A DNA stretch of 64,000 nucleotides. Source: Tricharina praecox (taxonomy: Eukaryota). Both the position numbers and the translations under genes were made by a program. The notes below the pieces were generated by a model. That model saw nothing but the letters and a program-made list of their open reading frames with translations, was not told where the DNA came from and searched no databases. Location: NCBI RefSeq assembly GCF_024521635.1, contig NW_026250408.1, positions 310,001 through 374,000 on the forward strand, in the 5' to 3' direction. This document shows, one piece after another, positions 3,536 through 40,608 of the stretch. Numbering within the stretch: position 1 is the first letter of the stretch; the number at the start of each line of letters is the position of its first letter.

Positions 3536-3930
3536 CCCGCGGCTCGTTCGCCGTAGACTTGTGGGTGAGTGGCCCATGATTCCGCAATACGCGTCTTCCT
3601 CCTCTGCTCAGTGCTCATAGCTGACCGAATCTAGAAGCCCCCGGGAAGGTAGTAGGAACGCCTACTGTCGGTGGACTTTGCTTACCAGGCAGTGGCAGTC
3701 GATTTACGAGATAGACAGTAACTACTACTGGATTCTGGGCACCAAGTTCTTAAACGTCTTTTTTCTTTCGCATTACTTCCTTCCATTGATTACGTTCCTG
3801 CTAGCAGCTGCCTATGTCTTGTCTATACTATATATGTATCCGCGCGTCCAATGCCCAATGCTCATGAAATTACATCCGCCATCCCACCCTTCCCTTCCTT
3901 TCCTCCACCCCCTCCCCCTCCCCGCACTAC

Positions 3931-12243: not shown

Positions 12244-12689
12244 AAATCTAGATCCTGCCGACGTCGCTGCCCGCCGCTGCCTCTCAAGCGCTAGATTCGA
12301 GAACGGAGACTACCAGGGATGCCTAGCGACGATCAAGGATACTCTCCCGCTCGAGACCGACGAGAAGAACAAGGTGGGGTTGAGGATACGACAGGCGAAG
12401 TGCTACTTCCACCTCAACCGGTTTCCGGAGGCGAGAGATTTGCTCGACTGCTATTCCGGTGGCAGCCAGGATGCCCTAAACATCAAAAAGACCGTCGACA
12501 ATGGGAAGAAACCGTACACCGCAGCGGTGAAGAAGGCGGTAGTGGCGGAAATGGTCGAGATGCCGAGATTCAGGCCGAGTCTGCATGCTGGACTCAACAT
12601 TTACTTTCCGCGCAACCACAACCATCCAGTTGCTGGGATCAAGGTGGAGGAATTGCATGCACGAGCGAAAGCGAAGTCGCCACTCGATA
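12244..12689 (+). repeat. 446-bp inverted duplicate of 11111-11556 (coding exon of the TPR gene)
   Basis: Both segments are 446 bp, and ORF-track translations are identical in several frames over the shared span. Confidence 0.95.
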
Positions 12690-20791: not shown

Positions 20792-22095
20792 CGTGCGTTT
20801 GTAAATATTAGGGATGGGTTCGAAGATATGGATGATAGGAGAGATCGAAGGGATATGATGATATGGATGAGTACAAAGTGATGGAGAAGAGGAAGAGGAC
20901 GAACTCGGTGGTGTATGTACTTTGCCCTTAATAAAGCAATGTGGGGGTTCCCTACTTCACGCCGACGACGCTGGATACTTTCTATTGAGCCGATATTAGG
21001 TTCGGCGATGTAGCACAGCACAGCCCCGCGACGGGAGCTGTATCCGTTTGTATGGCTGTTCTTTGCCTACAGGCCGGTGTTTGCCGGATGTTTGTGGTTG
21101 AGAAGCCACTGCTAGTACAAACAATGTATCTCTCATCATCAGGTTTCGATATATCGGCTGCGTTTGCATGGTTGGTGTTTGTTTTGTTATGGTTCTCGCC
21201 GGATACAGACGGTACAGACGTCGGGGAAGGTGGTTGGACGGTACCGATGGATGGCCATCGTTTCGATTCCTGTGACATCCGCTCTTCGTTCAATGATGGG
21301 TGGTCACTTCAGTGACTTCACCGTCGACACGAGAGACCACCTGCGGCGGAGCCTTGATAAACATCCTCGTCGATGGCGCTGGCTGGCTACGTGCCAGCCC
21401 TGCCTAGCCGCTCGCGGCTGGGCGAGGCTTGCCTCGCAACAGTTTGGCTAGACGGTGGTTGGAACCGGCGGAAACAATTCTCATCTAAGAAGTAATCTCG
21501 TATATGAAGAGATTAATTTTGGCCATGCAAGCAATCAAATTTCTATCCCCAACCATCTACATACCGTATCCTTCCTCTCACAGCCTCGTCGACATCCCCT
21601 ACCATCTGCCATATCCATCCTCTTCGATCCAATGGCCTCGTCGACGGGGGTGACTGGCTGCCAGCCCAAGCCAGCCCAGGCCAGCCCTAGCTGGCCATTA
21701 GCGGCTGATTGTGGAGTACCTTGCTAACTGTGAACTTCTATCCCAACCATGGATATCCTTCCTCTTAAATCCAACTTCTTCGATGGGGTTAGCCATCTAC
21801 CAGCCAACATCGCCCAGCCGTTGTCGGCTGGGCGAGGCTTGCCTCGCAACAGCTTGACTACACGGTAATCGGAAGTGGTGAGGACAGTTCTCATCTTATG
21901 TAACGTTTCGTTCCCAGCAGACTTTCACATGCTCACTGACTGATTACTAAAGACAAGTGGACTAGACTCGGAAACTAGCACGCGTGTGTCACTAAGCTCA
22001 CGACCATGCAAACTCTGCACACCAGCATACAATCACTAAATATCACTTGCTACCAAAGCGCCAACCCTCAAAACTTCAAAAAGAGTTGTTGATTG

Positions 22096-22167
22096 AGCCC
22101 GACGTGGGACTCGAACCCACAGCCTCAAGATTAGAAGTCTTGCGCGCTACCATTGCGCCAGCCAGGC
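22096..22167 (-). tRNA. tRNA-Arg (anticodon TCT), intronless
   Basis: GCCTGGC TG GCGC AATGGTA GCGC G CAAGA CT TCT AA TCTTG AGGCT GTGGG TTCGAGT CCCAC GTCGGGC T forms a full cloverleaf. T5 terminator lies ~14 nt downstream (22078-22082). Confidence 0.96.
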
Positions 22168-22325: not shown

Positions 22326-22601
22326 TGTCACGGCTCGCAACGGAATGAGGAAGAAAGGGCAGGCGCAACGATTGGAAGAGTCGTGTAACGGCACGGTCGG
22401 GCAAGGCTCCAGGTAGCAAAGTCGGGCTGGGGATCGGGTTCTGGGTTCGGTAGAGGCAAGACGGGTTCAGGGGACAAGGTGAGGCAGGTGTAACGGCACG
22501 GTCGGGCAAGGCTCCAGGTAGCGAAGTCGGGCTGGGGATCGGGTTCTGGGTTTGGTAGGGGCAAGACGGGTACAGGAGACAAGGTGAGGCAGGGCTCAGT
22601 G
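22326..22601. repeat. Three abutting family-A LTR fragments: 22326-22383 (+, 5' end), 22384-22488 (-, 3' end), 22489-22601 (-, 3' end)
   Basis: Each starts with an exact LTR terminus (TGTCACGG or TGTAACGG) and is cut off by the next. Confidence 0.85.
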
Positions 22602-23199
22602 TGTCACGGCTTGCGATGGAATGACGAAGGGAGGGTCGGCACAAGGATCGGGAGAGTTGGGGGGCAGTGCAGAGGCAGTGCACCGGCAGTGCAAGGATGA
22701 GTCGCAGAGGATTTGGGGCTGTGTGCAGGGAGCAGGGATAGCGCAGCAATGAGTCGCAGGAGATTGGGGCTGTGTGCAGGAAACAGGGGTAGTGCGGCTG
22801 CGCAGGGTATGAGTCACGGAAGTGGGGTACTGGCAAGGTGGATTTCTCAGGGTCTGGCACACGCCCACGGTCATTGTCAGGTTGCGGGAAGAAGTGGAGG
22901 ATTTTCTATATAAACGGGCCGTTGCCCCTCTGTATTTAGTTCTTCACGCAACAACTTGTTAATTCAACCACTGTTACCTCTGTCCTTGCCTCGGCTGCCG
23001 TCTGCGCCGTAGTCCTTGTGCCTGCCTCTGTTCTCAGTTGCCGTCTGCACTGAGCCCTGCCTCACCTTGTTCCCCGAACCCGTCTCGCCTCGACCGAACC
23101 CAGAACCCGTTCCCCAGCCCGACTTCGCTACCTGGAGCCTTGCCCGACCGTGCCGTTACACTTTGTTGCGTCCCCTATCTCTCCACCTAGCGAACTACC

Positions 23200-24396
23200 A
23201 TGGCCACCAACACTCAGGTACCCGACGTCCCCCAGCAGGACGAAGTACCAGTGGCACCCCCCTTCTACCGAGAAATTCCCGCCGCCATCTACGAACAACT
23301 CGAAATCATCGTCAATCATGATGTACCCGCCGATGATGCAACCCTGATGGGGTTGTACAATGAATTCAGAATCCTCGCCCGCGCAATCACCCAGTCCCCA
23401 ATAGCCGTACCGACCTGGCGATTCGACGACCTCGAAGAACAACTTGCCGACGCCCGCCGCATCGCCAACCGCCTCGCAACCGTCGAAACCCAACCTCAAA
23501 GCCGCGCTGAGCGTGTCCCAGAGCCAGCCATGTTCGACGGAACACGCGAGAAACTGGAAGGGTTCGTTGCGCAACTTCGACTCAAGCTGTACAGCGACCC
23601 AGCCCGTTTCCCAACTCCAGCACTCCGAATGGCCTATGCCTTCAACCGCTTGGAAGGCCGCGCCCAAGCCCAGATCCTGCCGTACATCGAGAATCACAAC
23701 ATCACCCTCACCAACGCTGATGCGATCATCACACTCCTGAACAACGCATTTGGTGACCCTGACCCAGCGGCCACCGCTCGAGCCAAGCTACACCACCTGA
23801 AACAAGGCAATAAGGAGTTCACCTCCTACTTTGCGGAATTCCAGATGCTTGTCTCCAAGCTCAATTGGGACGAGCATGCGAAACTTGACGCGCTGCGAGA
23901 GGGAGTATCCATCGAACTCCACCGGCAACTTGTGGGCCGTACTCAGGGCCTCAACTACGATGAGTTTGTGGCCCTCTGTCAACGCCTTGACTCCGAGCTG
24001 CGTGCCCTCCAACTTCGTGAGGGACGTCGCACCACCAACCCCCCTCGGCAGAGTAGCGCCCCACACCCAACGGCGCCGCTCAGGCACACCACCCACAACA
24101 CCATGCCCGCGACGACCACTGCCACAGGAACGGCCCCCGGAGCCATGGACTTGAGTGCCAACAGCCGCAGGATCCCAGACCAAGAGCGTGCTGCCCGGCT
24201 CCGCGAAGGCCGCTGCCTGTACTGTGGGGGAAGTGGCCACATGGCCAGGCACTGCCCCAACAAGAACCGAAATCCGTTCCGAGCAGCCGTTGCCCGGCTG
24301 GAGTCAGCCCAGCCCACCAACACCACCCCGACTCACACCTATCACAACTGCAACCAGGATTGCGGCGAGACCTCCCAGCAGTCGGGAAAAGCCTAG
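23200..24396 (+). CDS. gag: Gag (retrotransposon capsid + CCHC zinc knuckle), family A
   Basis: PEPAMFDG, LKQGNK...YFAEF, GAMDLS, CLYCGGSGHMARHC. Confidence 0.95.
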   Translation: MATNTQVPDVPQQDEVPVAPPFYREIPAAIYEQLEIIVNHDVPADDATLMGLYNEFRILARAITQSPIAVPTWRFDDLEEQLADARRIANRLATVETQPQSRAERVPEPAMFDGTREKLEGFVAQLRLKLYSDPARFPTPALRMAYAFNRLEGRAQAQILPYIENHNITLTNADAIITLLNNAFGDPDPAATARAKLHHLKQGNKEFTSYFAEFQMLVSKLNWDEHAKLDALREGVSIELHRQLVGRTQGLNYDEFVALCQRLDSELRALQLREGRRTTNPPRQSSAPHPTAPLRHTTHNTMPATTTATGTAPGAMDLSANSRRIPDQERAARLREGRCLYCGGSGHMARHCPNKNRNPFRAAVARLESAQPTNTTPTHTYHNCNQDCGETSQQSGKA

Positions 24397-27300
24397 ACCA
24401 ACAACCGCTTGATGGCACTGTTGTTGGTCGTACCCAGGATAAGTCTTTGTCTCCTATGTCCCCTATTTTTCGTTTGTCTAGTCTTTCAGTGTCAGGAATG
24501 GTTGTGGAAGAATCATCAATGGAAGGAAAACATCTTGTTGTATTGTGTAACCTTTCGTTTGGTGACAAAACTATTGCCACGCATGCGCTGATCGACTGTG
24601 GGGCAACCGGAATTGCATTTGTAGACAAAGACTTCGCCCGCCATCACCACCTACCCCTCGTACCCCTGAAATCCCCGCGAAGTCTCGAAGTCATTGATGG
24701 CCGTCCCATCGAGTCAGGCGACATCACACATGTTGCCACCACCACCCTGTCCATACAGGAATACCACGAGGAAATCCCTATGTTTGTCACCAAACTAGGC
24801 CACTACCCCGTTGTACTCGGAATCCCCTGGATGGACCTCCACGATGTGGCCATCCGGTTCAGCTCCCGAACCCTCACCTTCGGCTCCCAATACTGCACAG
24901 CCAACTGCAATGCGGTGCCCACAGTTGCACATGGAATCACCACCGACCCACCTGACGTATCCACCTATGCTCTCGCGTCAAAAGCAGCTCAGCAAGAGCC
25001 AGCGGTAAGCGCGGGGGCCGGCGACATCGTGGCCCGCTACATTACGTCTCCCCCAAGGAAGAATCACCAAGAATGCACTAACCTTTCAAGGGAAAGCACA
25101 GTCAGAATCTCAGCCTTACAGATGGAGTCATTCCAAGAACTGGTCGACAAGGAAAGCCTCACGATTTTCAACACCACGCTTGCCGAGGTCAACGGCGCAC
25201 TGGAAGGAAACAAGGACCCCACGGCACATATCCCTCACGAATACCACGAGTTCCTACCGCTATTCTCTGAAGCCCTTGCCCAGAACCTGCCCCCGCACCG
25301 ACACTACGACCATAAGATTCCACTCAAGGAGGGATTTACGCCCCCATACGGACCCCTGTACTCACTTTCGAAAACGGAGCTTGTCGCACTGAAGGAATGG
25401 CTTGACGACAACCTCCGCAAAGGTTTCATCCGTGCCTCTTCCTCTCCAGCAGCATCGCCAATCCTGTTTGTCAAGAAATCGGACGGCTCCCTACGCCTGT
25501 GTGTGGATTACAGGGGCCTGAACGAAGGAACAATCAAGAACAGGTACCCACTCCCACTCCTCCAAGAAACTCTGATGCGGCTATCCGGGGCAAAATACTT
25601 CACTACCCTGGATATCCGTGGTGCCTACAACCTTGTGCGGATGGCGGAAGGAGAAGAGTGGAAAACTGCCTTCCGGACACGCTATGGGCTCTTCGAATCC
25701 CTCGTCATGCCCTTCGGCCTCACCAACGCCCCTGCCGACTTCCAAGCTCTGATCAATGATGTGCTACGCCCGTTCCTCGACGGCTTCTGTACCGCATTCA
25801 TCGACGACGTCTTCATTTACAGCGGATCCTTAGATGAACACCGGAAACATGTCAGGAAAGTACTTCAGGCCTTATCAGCAGCCGGTCTGCATCTCAAACC
25901 CGAAAAATGTCATTTCCACCAGACGGAAGTCAAGTATTTGGGACTGATCATTACAACAAACGGGATCAAGATGGACCCATCGAAAGTCTCCTGCATACTG
26001 GAATGGGAGGAGCCGAGTACCGTCACCGATGTGCAATGCTTTCTGGGATTTGCGAACTTCTACCGGCGATTCATCCAAGACTATTCCAAGGTGGTATCCC
26101 CATTGACAGCATTGACCAAGAAGGAGGATGGAAAGTATGTTCCCTTCGTGTGGGGACCGGAACAGCAGAAAGCATTCGACGAACTAAAAACAGCATTCAC
26201 TTCGGCCCCGATCCTCCGGCACTTCGACTACGATCGGCAGATAGTAGTGGAAACCGACGCCTCCGACTACGTCTCTGCTGGCGTCCTATCTCAGTACGAC
26301 GACGAGGGAATCCTGCACCCAGTGGCATTCTATTCCAAGAAACATTCCCCGGCAGAATGCAACTACGAGATCTACGACAAAGAACTCCTCGCAATCGTCC
26401 GCGCCTTTGAGGAGTGGAGACCACACCTGGAGGGCGCTCCTCACCCCATCCAAGTCCTAAGCGACCACAAGAATCTGGAGTATTTCATGACAACGAAACT
26501 ACTCAACCGACGACAAGCGCGATGGTCAGAGTTCCTTTCCCGTTTCCATTTCAAGATTGTCTACCGACCAGGCAAAGCGGGAGGAAAACCGGATGCACTG
26601 ACCAGGAGGTCAGGAGACCTCCCTAAAGAAGGGGATGAAAGACTGCTTGCCAACCAGCAGGCAGTCCTGAAACCGGATAACCTACCGGAAGAGCTCCGGT
26701 TGGCAGCAACCAACACACCCGAACAAGACCGTCCCCTCCTCACGTCACTGATAACAGAAGGCTACGACATAGACCCCGTCCCAAATCGAATCCTCGAGCT
26801 ACTCCGAAATGGTACACGCCACTCGAAGCAGATCTCCTTGGCCGAATGCCGTGAAGTCAACGGGCGACTGATCTACCGAGACTGCCTCTATGTTCCAGAG
26901 TACGACCGACTCCGACTACGACTGATCCAGGACCACCACGGCCCACCGACCATGGGGCACCCAGGGCGCGCAAAAACCCTGGAACTACTTGCTCGAAGGT
27001 ACTACTGGCCACAGATGCGAAAGGACGTTGACCAGTTTGTCCGAAACTGCCACACCTGCCGACGAACCAAGGCCACCCGGCACGCACCCTATGGTGTCCT
27101 GCGCCCCCTCCCAGTACCCGAGAAGCCATGGCAACACATCTCAGTCGACTTTGTCACTGGCTTACCGGCCTCAAAGGGGTTTGACGCCATCTGTGTTTTT
27201 GTTGACCGACTGACCAAGCAACGCCATCTCCTACCATGTACCACGACCATCACCTCGGAAGGACTGGCCGAGCTGTTCTGCGACCGGATCTTCAGGTACC

Positions 27301-28385
27301 ACGGGTTGCCAGAAACCATCGTCTCGGATAGGGGTCCCCAGTTTGCCTCGAGATTCTGGAAACACCTATGCTCATGCCTCAAGATCGAGCCACGCCTGTC
27401 AACTGCCTTCCACCCCCAGACCGGCGGCCAAACCGAACGGATGAACGCCGTCATGGAACAGCACCTCCGTGCGTACGTCAGCTACCTCCAGGATGACTGG
27501 GTCGACTACCTCTTCTTGGCCGAATTCGCCGGCAACAACCAGGTCTCCGACACGACTACCCTGTCCCCATTCTTCGCTAACCTAGGATACCACCCACGGT
27601 GTGACTTTGAGCTGGATATCCGTGTCGACACCAAGGAGGAACATCAAGCTCAGAGTGCAGCGGAACGGTTGCATCAAATCCACGACGTCGCCCGCAGCCA
27701 AATGCGGTATGCCCAGGCACGGCAACAGGACGACTCCGACCGACACCGAACCCCTGCGCCAGCCTTCCAACCAGGCGACATGGTATGGGTGGATGGTCGG
27801 AACTGGCGCACCGAGAGACCCAGTCGCAAGCTGGAAAACAAACACCATGGTCCCTACCGTGTGATTCGGACAATCGGAACCCACGCCTACGAATTGGACA
27901 TCCCGGACACCGTTCAGAAGCACCGAACATTTCCTGTATCCCTCCTTCATGCCTCCGCTGACGATCCCTTCCCTGGACAAATTCCACCGCCACCACTTCC
28001 GGTAATCGTGGACGACCAAGAAGAATGGGAGGTTGAAGAGGTCCTCGACAGCCGGAACCTCAGGGGCAAACTCCAGTACCTGGTGAAATGGAGAGGCTAC
28101 GCGGCACCAACATGGGAACCAGAGGAGAACCTTACCGAGGTACAAGCTGTGGACGACTTCCATCGACGATACCCCATGCAGCCTGGACCAGTCGAACTTG
28201 CTCTCGTGGGAACTCGAGCCTTAGGAGGGACTACTGTCACGGCTCGCGATGGAATGACGAAGGGAGGGTCGGCACAAGGATCGGGAGAGTTGGGGAACAG
28301 TGCAGAGGCAGTGCACCGGCAGTGCAAGGATGAGTCGCAGAGGATTTGGGGCTGTGTGCAGGGAGCAGGGATAGCGCAGCAATGA
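24384..28385 (+). CDS. pol: Pol polyprotein (protease-RT-RNase H-integrase-chromodomain) in the -1 frame, family A
   Basis: ALIDCGAT; LRLCVDYRGLN; MPFGLTNAP; FIDD; ETDAS; HHCC zinc finger; VDFV...IVSDRG...ER; GPY; chromodomain EWEVEEVLD...YLVKWRGY...TWEP. Start given at the predicted slippery site. Confidence 0.96.
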   Translation, partial: GKSLDQQPLDGTVVGRTQDKSLSPMSPIFRLSSLSVSGMVVEESSMEGKHLVVLCNLSFGDKTIATHALIDCGATGIAFVDKDFARHHHLPLVPLKSPRSLEVIDGRPIESGDITHVATTTLSIQEYHEEIPMFVTKLGHYPVVLGIPWMDLHDVAIRFSSRTLTFGSQYCTANCNAVPTVAHGITTDPPDVSTYALASKAAQQEPAVSAGAGDIVARYITSPPRKNHQECTNLSRESTVRISALQMESFQELVDKESLTIFNTTLAEVNGALEGNKDPTAHIPHEYHEFLPLFSEALAQNLPPHRHYDHKIPLKEGFTPPYGPLYSLSKTELVALKEWLDDNLRKGFIRASSSPAASPILFVKKSDGSLRLCVDYRGLNEGTIKNRYPLPLLQETLMRLSGAKYFTTLDIRGAYNLVRMAEGEEWKTAFRTRYGLFESLVMPFGLTNAPADFQALINDVLRPFLDGFCTAFIDDVFIYSGSLDEHRKHVRKVLQALSAAGLHLKPEKCHFHQTEVKYLGLIITTNGIKMDPSKVSCILEWEEPSTVTDVQCFLGFANFYRRFIQDYSKVVSPLTALTKKEDGKYVPFVWGPEQQKAFDELKTAFTSAPILRHFDYDRQIVVETDASDYVSAGVLSQYDDEGILHPVAFYSKKHSPAECNYEIYDKELLAIVRAFEEWRPHLEGAPHPIQVLSDHKNLEYFMTTKLLNRRQARWSEFLSRFHFKIVYRPGKAGGKPDALTRRSGDLPKEGDERLLANQQAVLKPDNLPEELRLAATNTPEQDRPLLTSLITEGYDIDPVPNRILELLRNGTRHSKQISLAECREVNGRLIYRDCLYVPEYDRLRLRLIQDHHGPPTMGHPGRAKTLELLARRYYWPQMRKDVDQFVRNCHTCRRTKATRHAPYGVLRPLPVPEKPWQHISVDFVTGLPASKGFDAICVFVDRLTKQRHLLPCTTTITSEGLAELFCDRIFRYHGLPETIVSDRGPQFASRFWKHLCSCLKIEPRLSTAFHPQTGGQTERMNAVMEQHLRAYVSYLQDDWVDYLFLAEFAGNNQVSDTTTLSPFFANLGYHPRCDFELDIRVDTKEEHQAQSAAERLHQIHDVARSQMRYAQARQQDDSDRHRTPAPAFQPGDMVWVDGRNWRTERPSRKLENKHHGPYRVIRTIGTHAYELDIPDTVQKHRTFPVSLLHASADDPFPGQIPPPPLPVIVDDQEEWEVEEVLDSRNLRGKLQYLVKWRGYAAPTWEPEENLTEVQAVDDFHRRYPMQPGPVELALVGTRALGGTTVTARDGMTKGGSAQGSGELGNSAEAVHRQCKDESQRIWGCVQGAGIAQQ

Positions 28386-28798
28386 GTCGCAGGAGATTGG
28401 GGCTGTGTGCAGGAAACAGGGGTAGTGCGGCTGCGCAGGGTATGAGTCACGGAAGTGGGGTACTGGCAAGGTGGATTTCTCAGGGTCTGGCACACGCCCA
28501 CGGTCATTGTCAGGTTGCGGGAAGAAGTGGAGGATTTTCTATATAAACGGGCCGTTGCCCCTCTGTATTTAGTTCTTCACGCAACAACTTGTTAATTCAA
28601 CCACTGTTACCTCTGTCCTTGCCTCGGCTGCCGTCTGCGCCGTAGTCCTTGTCCCTGCCTCTGTTCTCAGTTGCCGTCTGCACTGAGCCCTGCCTCACCT
28701 TGTTCCCCGAACCCGTCTCGCCTCGACCGAACCCAGAACCCGTTCCCCAGCCCGACTTCGCTACCTGGAGCCTTGCCCGACCGTGCCGTTACATAGTG

Positions 28799-29244
28799 CA
28801 GACGGCAACTGAAAACAGAGGCAGGGACAAGGACTACGGCGCAGACGGCAGCCGAGGCAAGGACAGAGGTAACAGTGATTGAATTAACAAGTTGTTGCGT
28901 GAAGAACTAAATACAGAGGGGCAACGGCCCGTTTATATAGAAAATCCTCCACTTCTTCCCGCAACCTGACAATGACCGTGGGCGTGTGCCAGACCCTGAG
29001 AAATCCACTTTGCCAGTACCCCACTTCCGTGACTCACACCCTGCGCAGCCGCACTACCCCTGCTTCCTGCACACAGCCCCAATATCCTGCGACTCATTAC
29101 TGCGCTATCCCTGCTCCCTGCACACAGCCCCAAATCCTCTGCGACTCATCCTTGCACTGCCGGTGCACTGCCTCTGCACTGCCCCCCAATTTTCCCGATC
29201 CTTGTGCCGACCATCCCTTCGTCATTCCGTCGTGAGCCGTGACA
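28799..29244 (-). repeat. Remainder of the minus-strand family-A LTR interrupted by A1 (joins 22489-22601)
   Basis: Sequence resumes exactly after the TSD and ends in ...CCGTGACA. Confidence 0.9.
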
Positions 29245-31804
29245 CATTCGGCCAAGGACATCTCCTTCGAGTGGCGTGTACCATTTCGGAGTAGCTCGAG
29301 GATTCGATTTGGGACGGGGTCTATGTCGTAGCCTTCTGTTATCAGTGACGTGAGGAGGGGACGGTGTTGTTCGGGTGTGTTGGTTGCTGCCAACCGGAGC
29401 TCTTCCGGTAGGTTGTCCGGTTTCAGGACCGCCTGCTGGTTGGCAAGCAATCTTTCATCCCCTTCTTTAGGGAGGTCTCCTGACCTCCTGGTCAGTGCAT
29501 CCGGTTTTCCTCCCGCTTTGCCTGGTCGGTAGACAATCTTGAAATGGAAACGGGAAAGGAACTCTGACCATCGCGCTTGTCGTCGGTTGAGTAGTTTCGT
29601 TGTCATGAAATACTCCAGATTCTTGTGGTCGCTTAGGACTTGGATGGGGTGAGGAGCGCCCTCCAGATGTGGTCTCCACTCCTCAAAGGCGCGGATGATT
29701 GCAAGGAGTTCTTTGTCATAGATCTCGTAGTTGCATTCTGCCGGGGAGTGTTTCTTGGAATAGAATGCCACTGGGTGCAGGATTCCCTCGTCGTCGTACT
29801 GAGATAGGACTCCGGCAGAGACGTAGTCGGAGGCGTCAGTTTCCACTACTATCTGCCGATCGTAGTGGAAGTGCCAGAGGATCGGGGCCGAGGTAAATGC
29901 TGTTTTTAGTTCGTCGAATGCTTTCTGCTGTTCCGGTCCCCACACGAAGGGAACATACTTTCCATCCTCCTTCTTGGTCAATGCTGTCAGTGGGGATACC
30001 ACCTTGGAATAGTCTTGGATGAATCGCCGGTAGAAGTTCGCAAATCCCAGAAAGCATTGCACATCGGTGACGGTACTCGGCTCCTCCCATTCCAGTATGC
30101 AGGAGACTTTCGCTGGGTCCATCTTGATCCCGTTTGTTGTAATGATCAGTCCCAAATACTTGACTTCCGTCTGGTGGAAATGACATTTTTCAGGTTTGAG
30201 ATGTAGACCGGCTGCTGATAAGGCCTGAAGTACTTTCCTGACATGTTTCCGGTGTTCATCTAAGGATCCGCTGTAAATGAAGACGTCATCGATGAATGCG
30301 GTACAGAAGTCGTCGAGGAACGGGCGTAGCACATCGTTGATCAGAGCTTGGAAGTCGGCAGGGGCGTTGGTGAGGCCGAAGGGCATGACGAGGGATTCGA
30401 AGAGCCCATAGCGTGTCCGGAAGGCAGTTTTCCACTCTTCTCCTTCCGCCATCCGCACAAGGTTGTAGGCACCGCGGATATCCAGGGTGGTGAAGTATTT
30501 TGCCCCGGATAGCCGCATCAGAGTTTCTTGGAGGAGTGGGAGTGGGTACCTGTTCTTGATTGTTCCTCCGTTCAGGCCCCTGTAATCCACACACAGGCGT
30601 AGGGAGCCGTCCGATTTCTTGACAAACAGGATTGGCGATGCTGCTGGAGAGGAAGAGGCACGGATGAAACCTTTGCGGAGGTTGTCGTCAAGCCATTCCT
30701 TCAGTACGACAAGCTCCGTTTTCGAAAGTGAGTACAGGGGTCCGTATGGGGGCATAAATCCCTCCTTGAGTGGAATCTTATGGCCGTAGTGTCGGTGCGG
30801 GGGCAAGTTCTGGGCAAGGGCTTCAGAGAATAGCGGTAGGAACTCGTGGTATTCGTGAGGGATATGTGCCGTGGGGTCCTTGTTTCCTTCCAGTGCGCCG
30901 TTGACCTCGGCAAGCGTGGTGTTGAAAATCGTGAGGCTTTCCTTGTCGACCAGTTCTTGGAATGACTCCATCTGTAAGGCTGAGATTCTGACTGTGCTTT
31001 CCCTTGAAAGGTTAGTGCATTCTTGGTGATTCTTCCTTGGGGGAGACGTAATGTAGCGGGCCACGATGTCGCCGGCCCCCGCGCTTACCGCTGGCTCTTG
31101 CTGAGCTGCTTTTGACGCGAGAGCATAGGTAGATACGTCAGGCGGGTCGGTGGTGATTCCATGTGCAACTGTGGGCACCGCATTGCAATTGGCTGTGCAG
31201 TATTGAGAGCCGAAGGTGAGGGTTCGGGAGCTGAACCGGATGGCCACATCGTGGAGGTCCATCCAGGGGATTCCGAGTACAACGGGGTAGTGGCCTAGTT
31301 TGGTGACAAACATAGGGATTTCCTCGTGGTGTTCCTGTATGGACAGGGTGGTGGTGGCAACATGTGTGATGTCGCCTGACTCGATGGGACGGCCATCGAT
31401 GACTTCTAGACTTCGCGGGGATTTCAGGGGTACGAGGGGTAGGTGGTGATGGCGGGCGAAGTCTTTGTCTACAAATGCAATTCCGGTTGCCCCACAGTTG
31501 ATCAGCGCATGCGTGGCAATAGTTTTGTCACCAAACGAAAGGTTACACAATACAACAAGATGTTTTCCTTCCATTGATGATTCTTCCACAACCATTCCTG
31601 ACACTGAGAGACTAGACAAACGAAAAATAGGGGACATAGGAGACAAAGACTTATCCTGGGTACGACCAACAACAGTGCCATCAAGCGGTTGTTGGTCTAG
31701 GCTTTTCCCGACTGCTGGGAGGTCTCGCCGCAATCCTGGTTGCAGTTGTGATAGGTGTGAGCCGGGGTGGTGTTGGTGGGCTGGGCTGACTCCAGCCGGG
31801 CAAC
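29245..31804 (-). mobile_element. Truncated family-A internal region, copy A2 (gag end, protease, RT, RNase H)
   Basis: Near-identical to A1 ~24290-26848. The protease catalytic Asp is mutated (ALINCG). Cut by an A LTR at one end and by the TRIM at the other. Confidence 0.95.
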
Positions 31805-32213
31805 TGTCACAGTTCAGAAATCCTGGCCTTAAGTAGCTACTGGGATAATGGCCATCAGCCATCAAAATACCTTTTGGTCGAGTGGTATAGTACTTTCCCA
31901 GTGTACTTTATTACAGTTTGATGGCTGCAAAGGTCATGAGTTCAATTCCCACTGTGAGCAGTTACATTCCTCTGCTGCAGCGTTGTTCAGGAATTGCATG
32001 GCTTACAGTGAGTGACGGTTCATGATTGTTATCATGTATTATCACTCATTGGGGGTTAACTACTTGAAGGCTTCCTGGAGTAAGCCCCTAAAGAGGGGAT
32101 ACTGTCACAGTTCAGAAATCCTGGCCTTAAGTAGCTACTGGGATGATGGCCATCAGCCATCAAAATACCTTTTGGTCGAGTGGTATAGTACTTTCCCAGT
32201 GTACTTTATTACA
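31805..32213 (+). mobile_element. TRIM (409-bp non-autonomous LTR retrotransposon) with tRNA-type Pol III promoter boxes
   Basis: 111-bp LTRs 31805-31915 and 32103-32213 (TGTCAC...TTACA, 1 difference), 187-bp non-coding interior, PPT aaagagggga 32090-32099. A box 31875-31885, B box 31939-31949. Confidence 0.9.
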
Positions 32214-32623
32214 CGCACTACCCCTGCTTCCTGCACACAGCCCCAATCTCCTGCGACTCATTGCTGCGCTATCCCTGCTCCCTGCACACAGCCCCAAATC
32301 CTCTGCGGCTCATCCTTGCACTGCCGGTGCACTGCCTCTGCACTGCCCCCCAACTCTCCCGATCCTTGTGACGACCCTCCCTTCGTCATTCCATCGCGAG
32401 CCGTGACACTGGCACACTCCCACGGTCATTGTCAGGTTGCGGGAAGAAGTGGAGGATTTTGTAACGGCACGGTTGGGCAAGGCTGCAGGTAGCGAAGCCG
32501 GGCTGGGGATCGGGTTCTGCCTTCGGTAGAGGCAAGACGGGTTCAGAGGACAAGGTAAGGCAGAGCTCAGTGCAGAAGGCAACTGAGAACAGAGGCAGGG
32601 ACAAGGACTACGGCGCAGACGGC
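32214..32623. repeat. Family-A LTR fragments: 32214-32408 (-), 32409-32459 (+), 32460-32623 (-)
   Basis: Direct similarity to the A1 LTR, with LTR termini at the junctions. Confidence 0.88.
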
Positions 32624-33351
32624 TGTGACACCCCGATAGGTATCGGAGGTCACGACGGTCGCAAGAGATGTGATTAGATAGTTCGGGTGATTAGAATAGA
32701 GTTGCGAGCCGAAAGGATAGTTAGAAGCGATCAAGGACAAGATAGGAAGGAGGGAGCAAACGGATTCCAGAGTCTAGACAGTGATCGGAGATGCGGGTTA
32801 TCGGGATAACAGTCCAGAGGACTTTGAGATCTCCGATCATAGGGCCCCGCAGTAGGAGCTCCGATCCAGGAAAAAACTGTTATGACGAGAGAATCGAACA
32901 TCGACCGATGGGGGCAGACAACTTCGAGCGAAGAACTCTGCCGGCGCATGAGGGAGATAATTGCTCGGAAACTCCGATCTATCTTGGGCGCGTGGTGTTT
33001 ACCACCTGCCTAGTCGAGAAGACTATCCGAAGAGAGCTGACGACGACTCAAGGCTAGGCCGCGGAACTCCGATGCAAAGGAAGCAACGGAGCTACGTTAG
33101 GCCGCACTCTAGAGGAATCACGTGCTGAGGAACGGGACGACTATAAGTCGAACCGAGCGGGCAACCGAACAAACTACAATCATCGCACCGAACAAACCAT
33201 CGAACAAACACCCTTAAGATTATTCCGCTGTGAATTATCGAAATCCCTGACTTTTATTCTATCCTCGATTTTACTATAGACTCCGACGACACAAACCCGT
33301 CCCAGTCTCACACTATAATCTTAAGGTTACAGTCACCGATTTCTATCGAAA

Positions 33352-35355
33352 ATGTCCTCCTCAAACCTCGACATGCTCCGCCTCGAACTTCCTCAGACCC
33401 TGAGCAATGCGCTCGTTAGCATCCCGCAAGCATCCGAAACCGTCGAAGTACGAAACCCGGCAGCCTGGCTCAGGCTGATGAACCACCAATACCAAACGGC
33501 ACAAAGAGACCTGCGCCAGCTTTACCAAGCATGCGATCAGAAGTTCAACGAAGAGGACTCCCGAATGCAGGAAATCAGAAGGAACTACGAACAACTCTGC
33601 GATGGGGTCAAGTATGTGTACAACCTCTACGCTCACAACGCCGAAATGAATACAGAATGGCTTCGAACCGAGCTGTCAACGGTAGCGAACGCGACGCACG
33701 CCCTGAGCAGCGACGTATGGGCAGTCATTCGAGAACGTAACCAGAAAGACGAAGACAACCGCGAGTTGCAAAGCGTCGCAAAGACTCGGCTACAAGACGC
33801 CATCGTGTTCCTCGAAACGGCGCAAGTCGAACAACGCAGGGAGCAAGCGGTGTACAACCGCAACGTGGAAAATTGGGCAGGGAAACAGGAAGAGAAGGCA
33901 GAATACCTCTACAAGGAGCAACAGCGAATCAAGGAAAAAATCGCTCGAGCAGAGAAAAAATTGAAGGCTGTAGAGGTAAGGACAGGGAAGGCGAAGGAAA
34001 AGGCCCCGGAGTGGGTAAACACTACCCCATGAGGAGGATCGCGGGCAGAAAGATCAGCAACAAGGGAAACTCCGGCAGGTGCAGGAATGTCCCCTCCTCC
34101 TCCACCCCCAAGACGTCCGGTGACTAACCTTGGAGGTGATCCCACGGATGAGGAACCATCGGATGATGACGGTTCCATCCCCTTGCCGCGTCGTTCGCCG
34201 CCCCGTCACCGACACGCTCCGCTACCAAGAGAAGACGACGAAGACGAAGAGAGTCGCTTCGCTCGGATCATCGCTGCTGCCGTCTCCGCATCGAACCCGA
34301 GGGCCATCAAGCTTAAAATGAAAGAGCCCAAGCCGTTCGATGGCAAGCAAAGAACAGCCTTCCGTCCATGGTGGGACTCAGTTGAAGAATATCTTGAGTT
34401 CCACCCAGAGACAAACGAGCAGCAGAAGATAGCGTGGGTGGGATCCCGACTGGAAGGGACAGCGGCAGAATGGCATCAGGCCCGTCGAAAAAGCCTGAGG
34501 CAGCTACACTTGGAAGATACCTGGCAGGCGTACCAAGAGGCACTCAAGGAGGCGTACCGCGACACGCAGGAAGGAGCGAACGCATTAAGAAGGATGTGGG
34601 CCCTCGAATACAAAGGAGACATTCAGGCTTACATGACCTCCTTCCGATCGCTCAACATGATCGCTCGCGCCACCGGCGAACCGCTACAAGACATAGTCAA
34701 CCAGGCCATGACTACCGACATCGTTGATATGTGCTTCAACCAGCACACCGAACCCTACGAAGACGATGAAGACTTCCTGGAAACGGTGCTCAGGGCTGGC
34801 AACCATGTGGAACGACGGGACGCGCTGAAAAAGGCAAGGGCAATGAGGAAAGGGGGATCGGGTAGCCAGGGTTCCGGCGGCGACCGGAAGGGACCTGGCA
34901 ACGGCCGGCAGGGCCAAGGAAAGGGAAGAGACCCCGGGGGCCGCAAGGAAAGCGGGGAGTCCCCGGAGGGCCGAAAGGCCAAGGAAGCAACAGGAGTCAG
35001 GAAGGGAAGGACAAGGGAAGGGGACATCTACGCAGGAGCAAAGGAGGCTCTGGTAAGGGTTCCCCAGAAGGAGATCGATGCCCACAAAGCATCCAAGTGC
35101 GACTGTTGGCGTTGCGGACGAGACGGCCACCGAACCTTCCAATGCTACGCCAGAAAAACAGTCGCGGGTACCGAACTCCCCGAGAGTCCAAAGGTGTCAT
35201 CCGTGACAAAGAGAAAGCGGGACACCCAGGATGCCGAACCCACTCGACCGAGGTCCAAGCAACACAAGGCTGCGGCGGTTGTGGTGGAGGATGAAGCAAT
35301 GACGGAGGCCCCTCCATTCTGGGAAAGGAATGAGAGTGAGCCGGAGGATTTTTGA
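33352..35355 (+). pseudogene. gag: Family-B gag with long N-terminal coiled-coil region, interrupted by in-frame TGA at 34030-34032
   Basis: ORFs 33352-34032 and 34087-35355 are in the same frame with only one stop between them. KEPKPFDG; CWRCGRDGHRTFQC. Confidence 0.85.
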
Positions 35356-38300
35356 GCGGCCCCAGCACTCCGCAGACTGGACGGCCAAGTGTATATGTTT
35401 GCGGAACGAAGAGACCACGGCCTCAGGATATCGACAGCGAATCCAGAGATAAGCGAAGACGAACGGACCAACCTATTTCTACGAGTCCAACCGCGCCGAG
35501 CGCCTCAGGGTGTGAGCCCCCAAAACCTGTCAGCGGACCACGACCAATCATAGAGATGATGCTCCTCTGGTCTGAGCACAAGCGACGACGGATCCGAGTA
35601 CTCCTTGACACAGGATGTGCCATTCCGATCATCAAACGAAGCCTTGCACGAGAACTTGGGTTGCCCCTCATTCAACGACCCAAGCCGGTGGAAATCAAGG
35701 ACTTCCACGGAACCATAGTGGAAGGAGCCGGGGAATATTATACAATGCCGATGCTCCTTCAACACCGGAGCCACTACACCAACGAAACCTTCGAAGTGGC
35801 TCCCTTGGACGACTGCGATGCCTACCTCCCGTATTGGTGGATGGCTAAGCATGAACCGACAGGGTTGTGGAAGAATGAAGCACAGAAAATTCGCTTCACC
35901 AGCACCCGATGCAAGGAACAATGCACCTTGCAACAAGCAACCAGCTTTCCGATGGAACTTGACACGTCTGTCATTCACAATTCGGAGGCTCGCATTATTG
36001 GATACGTCTCAGCTGGCCCGGAATCAGATCCACCCATGAATCTGCTTCCGGAGAAGTTCAGACGATATGCCAACATCATGAGCAAGGAAGCAGCCGATAA
36101 GCTTCCCGACCACAAGTCCTACGGCCACGCAATCGATCTCAAGGAAGGAGAGACTCCTCCATGGGGTCCTATCTATGCCCTGTCAGAGAAAGAACTTGAG
36201 GCCCTCAGGGAGTGGCTCAAGGAGATGCTCCAGACAGGCAAGATTCGAAGATCCAAATCACCAGCCGGGGCGCCGATATTATTTGTACCAAAGGCGCACG
36301 GCAGGGGTCTCCGATTGTGTGTCGACTATCGCGGTATCAACAAGATTACCGTAGCCAATCGCTACCCACTCCCGATCATGGCAGAGTTGCAAGACCGAGT
36401 CAGGGGTGCGAAAGTCTTCACCAAGATTGATCTGAAGAATGGCTATCACCTTATCCGCATCAAGGAAGGTGACGAGTGGAAGACGGCTTTCCGCTGTCGA
36501 TACGGACTGTTTGAGTTTTTGGTCATGCCGTTTGGGCTGACCAACGCTCCAGCGACGTTTCAGGACATGATTAACCACATATTTCGGGATATGTTGGACC
36601 TGGGACTGGTCGCGTACATCGATGACCTCCTCATCTATGCGAAGACGCACGAGGAGCATGACAAGATAGTCATCGAGGTACTAAAGAGGTTGGAAGAAAA
36701 TAAGTTGGCAATCTCACCAGAGAAGTGTGCCTGGTCAACAGGGAGAGTCGAGTTCCTAGGATACGTGATATCCCAAGATGGAATTGAGATGGCTAAGGAA
36801 AAGGTGGAATCTGTGCTCTCATGGGAGGCGCCGCGGTCCCTGAAGGAAGTACAAGCCTTTCTTGGGTTCGCCAATTTTTACAGGCGCTTCATCAAGGATT
36901 TCTCAAAGATCACGAGACCCTTAACCGAGAGCACAAAAGAAAAAGGGAAGGATTGGAGATGGACAGCGGAGATGGAACTGGCCTTCGAGGAGCTGAAGTC
37001 TAGGTTCACCACGGCACCGATTCTCGGGCACTTCAACCCAGAATTACCTGTCATGGTGGAATCCGACGCTTCGGACTTCGCGTTGGGCGCGGTCCTGTCT
37101 CAAAGGACAGAGGATGGGAAGTTACACCCAGTTGCGTTCCACTCAAGAAAGTTTACCCCAGCCGAAATCAACTTTGAGATTCACGATAAGGAACTACTCG
37201 CGATAGTAGACTCTTTCAAACGCTGGCGGCAATACCTTGAGGGAGCAAAACACCAGATCCAGGTGTACAGCGACCACCAGAACCTTGAGTACTTCACAAC
37301 CACGAAAGTACTCAATCGACGGCAGGCGAGATGGGCACAAGAACTCGCTGGCATCGACTTCAAAATCTACTACCGGCCCGGCAGCCAGAATGGCAAGCCT
37401 GACGCATTATCCAGGCGCCCGGAGTACCGCCCTGAAAAAGGGGGGGGTGAAGATCAGCCGATTACGACGATCCTGCATAAATCACACTTTGCAGGCGACG
37501 ATTCGAGAGTTTCATCAATCAGCACCGGAGGCGAGAGCACCGTGTTTCTGGTTTCGTCAACTCGGCTACATTCAATCCCCGTGCCAAAGTGGAATGAAGA
37601 ATTTCTGGGTTGGGTCAGGAAGGCAGGAAAGGAAGATGCTGGGTATCAGGAGGCTCTGAGCAGCATCAAGGACACGAACGAGGACGCGGCTCAGAAGGAC
37701 ACTGAGTCGGAGGGCCGAAAGGCCTGGGAACTGGCCGCCGAGAGTAGGGACTCCGGCAGGATGGGCCGAAAGGCCAGGATTTTGAGGATGGAAGAGGGGT
37801 GCCTGTATAGGAAAGAAAGGCTATGGGTACCAGACGATAAGGAACTCGTCAGACACATCCTCGAGTCGGAACACGATACGAAAGTCGCGGGGCATATGGG
37901 CCAGGACAAGACTATCGAACTTATCCGACGCAATTTCTGGTGGCCAAAGATGGACGAGCAGATTATAGACTTCGTCCGGAGTTGCGCGCAGTGTCAGAAG
38001 GACAAAGCAACAAGGCACCAGCCGTATGGACTACTCAATCCCCTCGAGTTACCATACACCCCATGGCAATCAATAGCCATGGACTTCATTACCGACCTAC
38101 CGGAATCCAACGGTTGCGACCAGCTATGGGTGGTCGTCGACCACTTCACCAAGATGGCGCATTTCATCCCCCTACCTAAGGATGGAAAGATAGCCGAGGA
38201 TCTCGCGAAGATTTTTGCCCGCGAGATATGGCGCTTTCACGGATTACCAGCAGACATAGTGTCGGACCGAGACTCACGGTTTACCTCGGGTACATGGAAA

Positions 38301-39161
38301 GAATTCATCCGGCTGCTAGGCATTAAGCCCCGGATGTCAACAGCATTCCACCCACAGACGGATGGACAAACTGAACGCCTCAACCAGACGATTGAAGCAT
38401 ACCTCCGCTCCTTCGTCAACTACGAACAGAACGATTGGGTGAATCTCCTACCGATGGCTGAGTTTGCCTACAACAACTCGGTTACATCGGCAACCGGAAT
38501 GTCGCCCTTCTATGCGAATTTCGGATACCACCCGTCGGCGACAAACCCTGCTGCGGCAAATTCTCTCAACCCCGCCAGCAAGGTCTACGCTCACTGGATG
38601 CATACAGTCCACGAGGAAAACATCAAGACCCTCGAACGAACGCGCGAACGAATGCGCTAGTATGCAGATCAACATCGTCAGGAGGCACCGGCTTATCAAG
38701 TAGGAGACTTGGTAATGCTCAATGGGCGGAACATTCAAACCCGCCGACCCTCGCGGAAGTTGGACCACAAGAACCATGGTCCCTTCCAAATCGAGAAGAT
38801 CGTATCGCCGCTCGCTGTCAAGCTCACTCTGCCAAGGAAGTGGAAGATTCATAATGTCTTTCACGTCTCGCTCGTTGAACCGTTCCGAGCCGGCACCCGA
38901 GCACCACCGGATCCCTCTCAAATCTTACGAGAGGCCGATGATGTGGAAGGCAACGAAGAATACGACGTCGATGAGGTTATGGGCAGCTCGAAGAAAGGTC
39001 GACGAGTGCTCTACCTCGTCAAATGGCTCAACTACCCCGAACGACGGGACTGGACGAACGAGCCATTCGACAACTTCTCAGTAGGCGGTCGGGAAAAGCT
39101 ACGCGAGTTTCATCGCAAAAATCCCGATGCGCCGAGGGACTACCGGCTCACAGATGAGTAA
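35346..39161 (+). pseudogene. pol: Family-B pol (PR-RT-RH-IN-chromodomain), -1 frame, premature TAG at 38658-38660
   Basis: LLDTGCA; YIDD; ESDAS; HHCC; IVSDRD; HPQTDGQTER. The frame continues after the TAG through GPF and the chromodomain EEYDVDEVM...YLVKWLNY. Confidence 0.93.
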
Positions 39162-39993
39162 GAGTTTTTTCCCATGAGGTTTTTCTCGAACTCGGGCAGG
39201 TAGTAGGATGAAGGGGTTGGAGGACTTCATCCACAGTTATCAAGTTAGGATAAAGGCGAGGACTTGGGTGCTTCGGGCCGAAGCCTTGTGGGAGGGGAGA
39301 TGGTGTGACACCCCGATAGGTATCGGAGGTCACGACGGTCGCAAGAGACGTGATTAGATAGTTCGGGTGATTAGAATAGAGTTGCGAGCCGAAAGGATAG
39401 TTAGAAGCGATCGAGGACAAGATAGGAAGGAGGGAGCAAACGGATTCCAGAGTCTAGACAGTGATCGGAGATGCGGGAGATCGGGATAACAGTCCAGAGG
39501 ACTTTGAGATCTCCGATCATAGGGCCCCGCAGTAGGAACTCCGATCCAGGAAAAAACTGTTATGACGAGAGAATCGAACATCGACCGATGGGGGCAGACA
39601 ACTTCGAGCGAAGAACTCTGCCGGCGCATGAGGGAGATAATTGCTCGGAAACTCCGATCTATCTTGGGCGCGTGGTATTTACCACCTGCCTAGTCGAGAA
39701 GACTATCCGAAGAGAGCTGACGACGACTCAAGGCTAGGCCGCGGAACTCCGATGCAAAGGAAGCAACGGAGCTACGTTAGGCCGCACTCTAGAGGAATCA
39801 CGTGCTGAGGATCGGGACGACTATAAGTCGAACCGAGCGGGCAACCGAACAAAACTACAATCATCGCACCGAACAAACCATCGAACAAACACCCTTAAGA
39901 TTATTCCGTTGTGAATTATCGAAATCCCTGACTTTTATTCTATCCTCGATTTTACTATAGACTCCGACGACACAAACCCGTCCCAGTCTCACA

Positions 39994-40608
39994 GTTATTG
40001 CGTGAAGAACTAAATACAGAAGGGCAACGGCCCGTTTATATAGGAAATCCTCCCCTTCTTCCCGCAACCTGACAATGACCGTGAGCGTGTGCCAGACCCT
40101 GAGAAATCCACCTTGCCAGTATCCCACTTCCGTGACTCATACCCTGCGCAGCCGCACTACCCCTGCTTCCTACACACAGCCCCAATCTCCTGCGACTCAT
40201 TACTGCGCTATCCCTGCTCCCTGCACACAGCCCCAAATCCTCTGCGACTCATCCTTGCACTGCCGGTGCACTGCCTCTGCACTGCCCCCCAACTCTCCCG
40301 ATCCTTGTGCCGACCCTCCCTTCGTCATTCCGTCGCGAGCCGTGACAGATTTTCTATATAAACGGGCCGTTGCCCCTCTGTATTTAGTTCTTCACGCAAC
40401 AACTTGTTAATTCAATCACTGTTACCTCTGTCCTTGCCTCGGCTGCCGTCTGCACCTTAGTCCTTGTCCCTGCCTCTGTTCTCAGTTGCCGTCTGCACTG
40501 AGCCCTGCCTTGCCTTGTCCTCCGAACCTGTCTTGCCTCTGGCAAACCCAGTACCCGATCACCCGCCCAACTTCGCTACCTGGAGCCTTGCTCGACCGTG
40601 CAGTTACA
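39994..40608. repeat. Family-A LTR remainders: 39994-40347 (-, partner of 32460-32623) and 40348-40608 (+, partner of 32409-32459)
   Basis: TSD GATTT at 32455-32459 and 40348-40352 brackets the minus-strand solo LTR. The nest ends with ...GTTACA at 40608. Confidence 0.9.

Follow-up and report, generated by a model that had tools for sequence, protein, structure and literature searches.

TRIMs in the classical sense are LTR elements of <1 kb with terminal repeats of 100-250 bp, an interior that runs from a PBS to a polypurine tract (PPT), no genes, and a PBS complementary to a tRNA (excerpts of PMC6934838). Several groups have been connected with Pol III. Helenus, the tRNA-type group of TRIMp3, comprises elements of 311-1263 bp with LTRs down to 116 bp (Kojima 2024, PMC10886601), Cassandra occurs in plants and Ajax in nemerteans (PMC10886601; excerpts of PMC7215508). 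TRIMs with a Pol III promoter are also present in fungi, the Agaricomycetes included (PMC10886601). For Helenus, the main text of the same paper reports no complementarity between LTR and PBS (PMC10886601). Self-priming, on the other hand, is known from Tf1, in which the RNA's first 11 bases anneal to the PBS, RNase H cutting between bases 11 and 12 (excerpts of PMC7175516). Tj1 and Tcn1 are likewise described as self-priming (excerpts of PMC7175516, PMC4600332 and PMC6934838). A full-text search of the literature for a self-priming TRIM found no report, and a paper on bivalve TRIMs mentions both TRIMs and self-priming and, in its excerpts, leaves the priming mode open (PMC6934838).

We analyzed a window of 64,000 nucleotides of Tricharina praecox (contig NW_026250408.1, positions 310,001 to 374,000, forward strand) that contains a miniature LTR element. 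From its sequence, we read this element as a self-priming, non-autonomous TRIM for which a chromovirus of the family-A type supplies RT/RNase H and integrase, and we put the probability of this reading at about 0.85. The fuller statement, in which this self-priming TRIM dependent on family A is also transcribed by Pol III from a split tRNA-type promoter, is one to which we give somewhat less than an even chance.

Structure and genomic context of the element

We verified the anatomy of the element and list its features, together with those of the neighboring elements, in Table 1. The initial annotation had described a 409-bp element with 111-bp LTRs, and every one of its coordinates matches the sequence. 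The two LTRs are identical at 110 of 111 positions, with a sole difference at 31847 A / 32145 G. Their ends are of the TG..CA type, starting with TGTCAC and finishing with TTACA. Provided that the RNA begins at 31856, U3 would comprise 31805-31855, and these 51 nt are without a TATA. The A-box-like and B-box-like words are indeed found where they had been placed, each 1 mismatch from its consensus, and the B-box-like word lies 24 nt beyond the end of the 5' LTR. The T4 run of the LTR is the only kind of T run of ≥4 in the element, and there are none of ≥5. The dimensions (409 bp with 111-bp repeats) fall within those of TRIMs (<1 kb, repeats of ~100-250 bp), and the element has an internal PPT (AAAGAGGGGA) and no coding capacity, the longest ATG ORF wholly within it being 55 aa.

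Table 1. Coordinates of the miniature element and of the neighboring Ty3/gypsy elements in the window.
Feature	Position	Strand	Remarks
Miniature LTR element	31805-32213	+	409 bp, LTR-interior-LTR
5' LTR, 111 bp, TGTCAC...TTACA	31805-31915	+	Direct repeat with 32103-32213
Candidate self-primer CAGCCATCAAA, predicted RNA nt 1-11	31856-31866; second copy 32154-32164	+	Exact complement of 31917-27
T4 run, +17 to +20 from 31856	31872-31875; second copy 32170-32173	+	Weak Pol III terminator or R end possible
A-box-like word TGGTCGAGTGG, within LTR	31875-31885; second copy 32173-32183	+	1 mismatch to TRGCNNAGTGG
Predicted U5 stem-loop, enclosed by primer/PBS duplex	31882-31914	+	RNA fold
PBS position TTTGATGGCTG, 1 nt past 5' LTR	31917-31927	+	Exact reverse complement of 31856-31866; MFE fold pairs both
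tRNA T-arm-like stretch AGGTC-ATGAG-TTCAATT-CCCAC-TGTGAGC	31931-31959	+	Contains the B-box-like word
B-box-like word AGTTCAATTCC, interior	31939-31949	+	1 mismatch to GGTTCRANYCC, 2 to GGTTCGANTCC
Polypurine tract AAAGAGGGGA	32090-32099	+	Followed by TAC (to 32102), directly 5' of 3' LTR
3' LTR	32103-32213	+	Direct repeat; other copies switch to unrelated flanks at 32102/32103 and 32213/32215
Family A copy A1, intact Ty3/gypsy chromovirus	22602-28793	+	559-bp LTRs TGTCAC...TTACA
A1 self-primer (9 nt)	22946-54	+	~39 nt after TATATAAA
A1 PBS	23163-71	+	Complement of 22946-54
Family B, second Ty3/gypsy element	32624-39993		Full-size; self-primer layout

The element is part of an LTR-retrotransposon nest that spans about 22383-40608. 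Its left flank is a reversed, truncated family-A copy, in which 29245-31804 corresponds to A1 26848-24289 at 98.4% identity; to the right, the element abuts a family-A LTR in reverse orientation, from LTR position 196 downwards. Because family-A sequence makes up both flanks, the element replaces ~1.5 kb of a reversed family-A copy. The 5-bp TSD that had been proposed as a check is missing from this copy (GCAAC on the left versus CGCAC on the right). Family B also lacks a TSD (ACGGC versus GTTAT), and the nest has therefore been rearranged. A1, which sits within a reversed family-A LTR, is flanked by CAGTG/TAGTG. Recombination between two insertions of the miniature element, or a flanking deletion, would account for the lost TSD. 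As to the host, one protein-atlas look-up pointed to fungi, with Basidiomycota most frequent, which we take as a tentative lead.

Copies in public sequencing runs

Part of the element is contained in 20 of the 22 public sequencing runs listed (11 studies). Ten of the 22 contain at least half of 34 sampled words, X19 and X20 have small shares, and 3 are recorded as RNA. We compared contigs in four runs (X1, X2, X14, and X15), the listing covering 25 of the 130 pieces and 16 of the 21 loose ends. All four have contigs that carry the element, and X14 is from a second organism. Contigs spanning LTR, interior, and LTR are 328 nt long in X1 and 327 nt long in X2. In X14, coverage is deep over 31882-32110, and LTR positions 9-77 are without cover at high depth. 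The RNA library X15, which by itself is no proof of transcription, yielded one 243-nt contig over 31899-32141 and also has uncovered parts. The ratio of family A to element depth is unequal between X1 and X2, and we do not read it as a copy number. Exact-word scans of metagenome contigs for the LTR end (32188-32213) and the interior (31974-31997) gave 0 matches, as did an exact-word scan of prokaryote genome contigs.

In all four runs, 32028 is C and 32037 is A, where the window copy has G and T; therefore, other copies exist. Among the contigs listed, further LTR copies differ from the window LTR at 6-11 sites. Unrelated flanks start at 32102/32103 in at least 1 + 3 contigs of X2 and at least 2 + 1 of X14, and at 32213/32215 in at least 2 + 1 contigs of X2 and at least 1 + 1 of X14. 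Since the flanks break exactly at the LTR borders, these are the borders of a mobile unit, and the view that this is a repeated element is borne out by other LTR copies with other flanks. A shorter variant without the PBS/B-box part is also present (joint 32213->32013, depth 2.5). The full-length copies seen are ~99% alike, and the conservation of their B box and PBS therefore carries no weight. Among the copies listed, 11 LTR sites are variable. None of them falls in the primer or in the first or last 30 nt (the latter being LTR positions 82-111), and the primer segment shows no differences among the listed contigs of the four runs.

We considered whether contig ends might be RNA ends and set both candidates aside. 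Contigs start at 31880 in X2 and, in the deep contigs of X14, at 31882, where a sequencing adapter precedes that base. If these were RNA ends, the start would lie ~25 nt downstream of the primer. A break of the assembly graph at the variable LTR positions 74/76/80 explains them equally. The lengths of the 328- and 327-nt contigs equal the 298-nt LTR + interior period plus about k-1, and we read these contigs as an unrolled loop of the assembly graph.

Self-priming layout and the likely helper

The initial annotation held that the PBS position is an 11-nt complement of the LTR word 31856-31866. This complement is exact over 11 nt, neither end can be extended, and only 1 of 5000 LTR shuffles gave a complement of ≥11 nt at offsets 0-4. 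The site past the LTR does not begin with TGG; the comparison with tRNAs covered the single tRNA of the window. We folded the RNA 31856-31960 and obtained an MFE of -30.4 kcal/mol (z -2.58; 3 of 200 shuffles were as stable). In this prediction the primer/PBS duplex encloses a small hairpin and the stem-loop 31882-31914.

The same layout is found next door. In the family A copy A1, a 9-nt LTR word is complementary to a site 2 nt past the end of the LTR (28 of 5000 shuffles equal), and the MFE fold also closes on the primer/PBS duplex, the fold as a whole being no better than those of shuffles. In family B, the 12-nt word 33212-23 complements 33315-26 (1 of 5000 shuffles equal), and the fold closes on the primer/PBS duplex with z -4.7. 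Thus, a predicted self-priming layout of the Tf1 type is common to the two full-size Ty3/gypsy elements of the window.

It had been suggested that the termini and the PPT followed by TAC resemble those of family A, and the alignment agrees. The PPT/LTR junction aligns in register with its family-A counterpart (CCTAAAGAGGGGATAC|TGTCAC versus CCTTAGGAGGGACTAC|TGTCAC), with 17 of 22 positions identical and 0 of 500 shuffles equal. No alignment beyond chance was found for this junction with family B (216 of 500 shuffles equal). The LTR end and PBS start are identical to family A at 11 of 13 positions in register, a match equaled by 62 of 500 shuffles. The LTR body and interior have no similarity to families A and B beyond the junction signals. 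The LTRs of A1 are 99.3% alike, its gag and pol frames are open, and Pfam assigns to it RVT_1, RNase H, Integrase_H2C2, rve, SH3_Tf2-1, and Chromo domains. Because the PPT/LTR junction is in register with that of this intact chromovirus, family A is the likely helper. A chromodomain integrase would fit the landing of the element inside a TE nest.

A candidate split promoter and the Pol II alternative

We searched both strands of the 64-kb window for A+B box pairs 30-90 nt apart and detected two, one in a genuine tRNA-Arg gene and one in the miniature element. Markov simulations (40 runs) gave a mean of 0.175 such pairs per 64 kb. Between 31856 and the last base of the interior lie 247 nt that are predicted to be transcribed. 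Shuffling them produced an A+B pair in 25 of 200,000 cases, and one whose A box lay at +9 to +26, counted from the primer-defined start, in 3 of 200,000. The box hypothesis was framed after the sequence had been inspected. A box pair at this distance from the primer is far beyond chance, even allowing generously for a post hoc idea. We also note that CCATCAAA stands 16 nt ahead of the element's A box and 17 nt ahead of the A box of the tRNA-Arg gene, a post hoc comparison with one tRNA gene.

The description of the interior as a tRNA-like variable loop and T arm survives in part. ARAGORN with default settings did not find a tRNA in the element, and neither did Rfam (E ≤ 10) on 2 kb and on 126 nt. 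A relaxed ARAGORN search returned a tRNA-Ser-like fold at 31871-31959, which we regard as noise, as the window gave 13 calls and shuffles gave 2-17; allowing introns, the window gave 132 calls and shuffles 105-133, again noise. In the T-arm-like stretch, 3 of 5 pairs of the T stem can form. Alignment to the tRNA-Arg of the window is insignificant (159 of 2000 shuffles equal), also for its 3' half (101 of 5116 window segments equal). Compared by eye with the sequence file of PMC10886601, 31928-31959 is identical at 27 of 32 positions to an internal stretch of Helenus-2_PGr and at 23 of 30 to the T arm that Helenus-6_PSt carries in its LTR. These likenesses indicate that the interior stretch is truly T-arm-like, and it is this part of the description that stands; the tRNA as such was found by neither program.

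The sequence suggests, tentatively, a Pol III promoter that is split by the LTR border, with its A box in U5 and its B box behind the PBS. In the same reading, the Pol III start might coincide with the first base of a Tf1-type self-primer and solo and 3' LTRs might be silent, a proposal that we hold to be a serious one at somewhat under even odds.

A self-priming TRIM dependent on family A could also be transcribed by Pol II, from the short U3 or from an initiator. The boxes would then be leftovers of a tRNA- or SINE-derived ancestor or a structure of the priming RNA, and no promoter today. This account may be correct, although we would not wager on it at even stakes. Pol II is the default polymerase of LTR elements, and both self-priming neighbors look Pol II-driven, family A having TATATAAA ~39 nt upstream of the primer. 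The A box of the miniature element shares nucleotides with the predicted small hairpin and with the lower end of the U5 stem. It is also the most variable segment of the LTR: 4 of the 11 listed variable sites fall within its 11 of 111 positions (P=0.012), contrary to the conservation among copies that had been set as a test of the idea. Three of these four changes (G>A 32174, T>C 32176, and G>A 32178) are consensus-compatible, and T>C at 32176, which is seen in at least 3 contigs (depth 57/184 in X2), yields a perfect A box. The fourth, G>A at 32182, destroys its invariant GG. Copies with a variant A box may be dead solo LTRs, making the variability test weak either way. The Pol II account further gains from the failure of ARAGORN and Rfam to detect a tRNA fold, and from the T4 run at +17 to +20, which would hamper Pol III. 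The tRNA-Arg gene of the window ends in T5 and then T4, so T4 may terminate Pol III in the element. In addition, rust Helenus elements with a promoter in the LTR only also carry internal T-arm-like stretches (PMC10886601), and such a stretch need not, therefore, be half of a promoter. Against Pol II, however, the U3 of 51 nt is without a TATA, and the spacing of the boxes from the primer-defined 5' end (3 of 200,000) is left to coincidence or history.

Other explanations

The element could also be a dead relic of a family that was once mobile, so that neither the window copy nor the copies nearly identical to it are still transcribed or mobilized. We consider this improbable. The lost TSD, the heavily rearranged nest, and the shorter variant that lacks the PBS/B-box part at low depth (2.5) would all suit a relic, and the contigs from the RNA library are in themselves no proof of transcription; on this account, presence in RNA libraries would stem from read-through or DNA carry-over. 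A relic fits poorly, however, with LTRs identical at 110 of 111 positions, with ~99%-alike copies in two organisms and several environmental runs, and with a likely helper that is intact and has LTRs 99.3% alike.

That there is no retroelement here, and that the repeats are a local 298-bp tandem duplication or a recombination scar in the family-A nest, is very improbable: it would suit the missing TSD and the replacement of ~1.5 kb between a left flank of family-A internal sequence and a right flank of family-A LTR, but it is contradicted by LTR copies elsewhere whose unrelated flanks break exactly at the LTR borders, by the TG..CA ends, the PPT in register with family A and the complement at the PBS position, and by the lack of family-A similarity beyond the junction signals.

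Discussion

A cycle can be proposed for a self-priming TRIM with a split promoter. The RNA of the element would begin at ~31856. It would be made by Pol III from an internal promoter of the tRNA type, whose A box is located in U5 (+20) and whose B box follows the PBS (+84); this is the weakest step of the proposal. A complete promoter would arise only where a 5' LTR is joined to the interior. Pol III would need to pass the T4 run (+17 to +20) in the 5' LTR, and perhaps some transcripts would end at this run in the 3' LTR, in which case the terminal redundancy would be 17-20 nt. Nucleotides 1-11 of the RNA would fold back onto 31917-27, enclosing the U5 stem-loop. RNase H of the helper would cleave after nucleotide 11 and its RT would extend the primer, as in Tf1. 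The PPT would prime the plus strand, and the chromodomain integrase of the helper would insert the copy.

The locus thus presents what appears to be a self-priming TRIM with a statistically striking candidate for a split Pol III promoter. TRIMs have usually been described as tRNA-primed, and Cassandra, Helenus, and Ajax keep the whole Pol III promoter in the LTR. A TRIM that copies the self-priming of its helper would imply that parasites on LTR elements follow the helper in its mode of priming, besides its integrase and PPT signals. A shared priming mode would then be a simple sequence rule for matching a TRIM to its helper. Should the split promoter prove real, it would explain how transcription is driven with a U3 of 51 nt, keep solo and 3' LTRs silent by design, and extend the TRIMp3 class. 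As regards annotation, elements of this kind would leave tRNA-box look-alikes and potential TFIIIC sites dispersed over fungal genomes.

Comparison with known elements

The miniature element resembles classical TRIMs in its size, its repeats, its interior from the PBS position to the PPT, and its lack of genes. It differs from them in the PBS, which is complementary to a tRNA in classical TRIMs and to the element's own LTR here.

With Helenus it shares that both are small, non-autonomous fungal LTR elements with a PPT and with boxes of the tRNA-gene type proposed as a Pol III promoter. Some rust Helenus families have, as the miniature element does, a T-arm-like stretch in sense orientation in the internal part. 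In Helenus, however, both boxes lie in the LTR, whereas the LTR of the miniature element contains the A box alone, its B box following the PBS. The Helenus PBS pairs with a cellular tRNA, at its 3' end or anticodon loop, and the PBS position here pairs with the element's own LTR. Fungal Helenus elements are tied to Copia helpers, whereas the junction alignment points here to a Ty3/gypsy chromovirus. The comparison with Helenus that had been recommended accordingly gave no match to the described families: none of six 10-12-nt words of the element is present in the sequence file of PMC10886601, and shared words are limited to the generic T arm.

Cassandra and Ajax are, like the miniature element in the reading with a split promoter, TRIMs for which Pol III transcription from a promoter inside the element is presumed (PMC10886601; excerpts of PMC7215508). 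According to the same sources, their promoter is of the 5S type (box A, IE, and box C) and lies wholly in the LTR, and they are primed by a tRNA (PMC10886601; excerpts of PMC7215508). Cassandra RNA has an 18-bp terminal redundancy (PMC10886601), near the 17-20 nt expected from the T4 run here.

A split promoter might represent a SINE-like promoter strategy set on the life cycle of a self-priming LTR element and served by a Pol II-transcribed chromovirus, a combination that we put forward with some hesitation. tRNA-derived SINEs are short, non-coding retroelements with an internal A/B-box promoter that is carried by each new copy. They differ from the miniature element in having no LTRs, PBS, or PPT, and in being copied by LINE machinery at the target site (also PMC10886601).

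In priming, the closest likeness is to Tf1/Tf2, Tj1, Tcn1, and the Tf1/sushi group. As described in excerpts of the papers on these elements, they too have a PBS complementary to an LTR word (11 nt in Tf1, 11 nt here), an enclosed U5 stem-loop (predicted here), and fungal hosts. In the miniature element, the enclosure of the U5 stem-loop by the primer/PBS duplex is found in the predicted fold, at the z of -2.58 given above. As far as these excerpts go, the elements of the Tf1/sushi group are autonomous, 5-6 kb long, and Pol II-transcribed, whereas the miniature element is non-coding and has a 51-nt U3. It has no RT/RNase H and no Ty3/gypsy pol of its own, and the neighboring family A has both. 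By its layout, the miniature element appears to work like the Tf1 group without being a member of it.

Nested Ty3/gypsy elements beside a tRNA-Arg gene

Transposable elements form a nest on the upstream side of a tRNA-Arg(TCT) gene, beginning ~215 bp from it. Pieces of the LTR of family A, a Ty3/gypsy chromovirus that is the likely helper of the mini element (a 409-bp TRIM), occur in both orientations in this nest, and the end of the LTR is found reversed in two tandem copies at 22383-22601. The family-A copy A1 appears to be a young, intact element: its two LTRs share 99.3% identity, the gag and pol frames are both open, and it encodes a Tf2-type SH3 and chromodomain. A1 is flanked by CAGTG and TAGTG, and its self-primer/PBS pair, in which a word of the LTR is complementary to the site just behind the 5' LTR, comprises 9 nt.

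Family B, a second Ty3/gypsy element, has LTRs of 689-690 bp with the termini TGTGAC...TCACA, and its self-primer/PBS pair (33212-23 / 33315-26) is 12 nt long. The element interrupts a family-A LTR, of which ~40 nt are missing at the joint, and its insertion is without a target-site duplication. In the family-B LTR, the region around the self-primer (33200-33222 and 39881-39903, both on the minus strand) is similar to the tRNA-Arg anticodon arm; local alignment against the tRNA-Arg of the window gave a score of 30 over tRNA positions 35-57.

Coordinates of the nest and of other features of the window
Feature	Position	Strand
Diverged direct duplication	1-1367 and 2199-4301	
130-bp tandem units	2786-3350	
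Inverted repeat, arms	11111-11556 and 12244-12689	
tRNA-Arg(TCT) gene	22095-22167	(-)
TE nest	22383-40608	
Reversed family-A LTR ends	22383-22601	
Family A copy A1	22602-28793	
A1 gag	23191-24396	
A1 pol	24057-28385	
Family B, Ty3/gypsy element	32624-39993	
hAT-domain ORF	62914-63876	(-)

Other repeats and open reading frames

The inverted repeat is perfect (100% identity over 446 bp, with 687 bp between the arms). The direct duplication, spaced ~2.2 kb apart, consists of several blocks that are 67-83% identical, and includes the tandem units. Pfam detects a hAT-family dimerisation domain (E 2.5e-10) in the minus-strand ORF, which is probably what remains of a DNA transposon.

Mini-element copies in public sequencing runs

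One contig of run X2 (depth 2.5) joins 32213 to 32013: the end of a diverged LTR is followed by GTT and then by the sequence from 32013 on. We read this contig, from its sequence, as a variant of the mini-element family in which the PBS and B-box part (~31916-32009) is missing. A deep contig of a second organism in run X14 begins at 31882, preceded by 25 nt of Illumina adapter, and deep coverage of the mini element in this run ends at 32110; this may reflect the true end of a molecule or may have arisen during assembly.

Comparison with rust Helenus families

Three rust families, Helenus-2_PGr, Helenus-3_PSt and LTR-1_PTrit, also contain sense T-arm-like stretches in their internal parts (sequence file of PMC10886601); that paper does not discuss these stretches. 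It does state that the internal part of LTR-1_PTrit matches the start of the Copia-9_PGr internal part.
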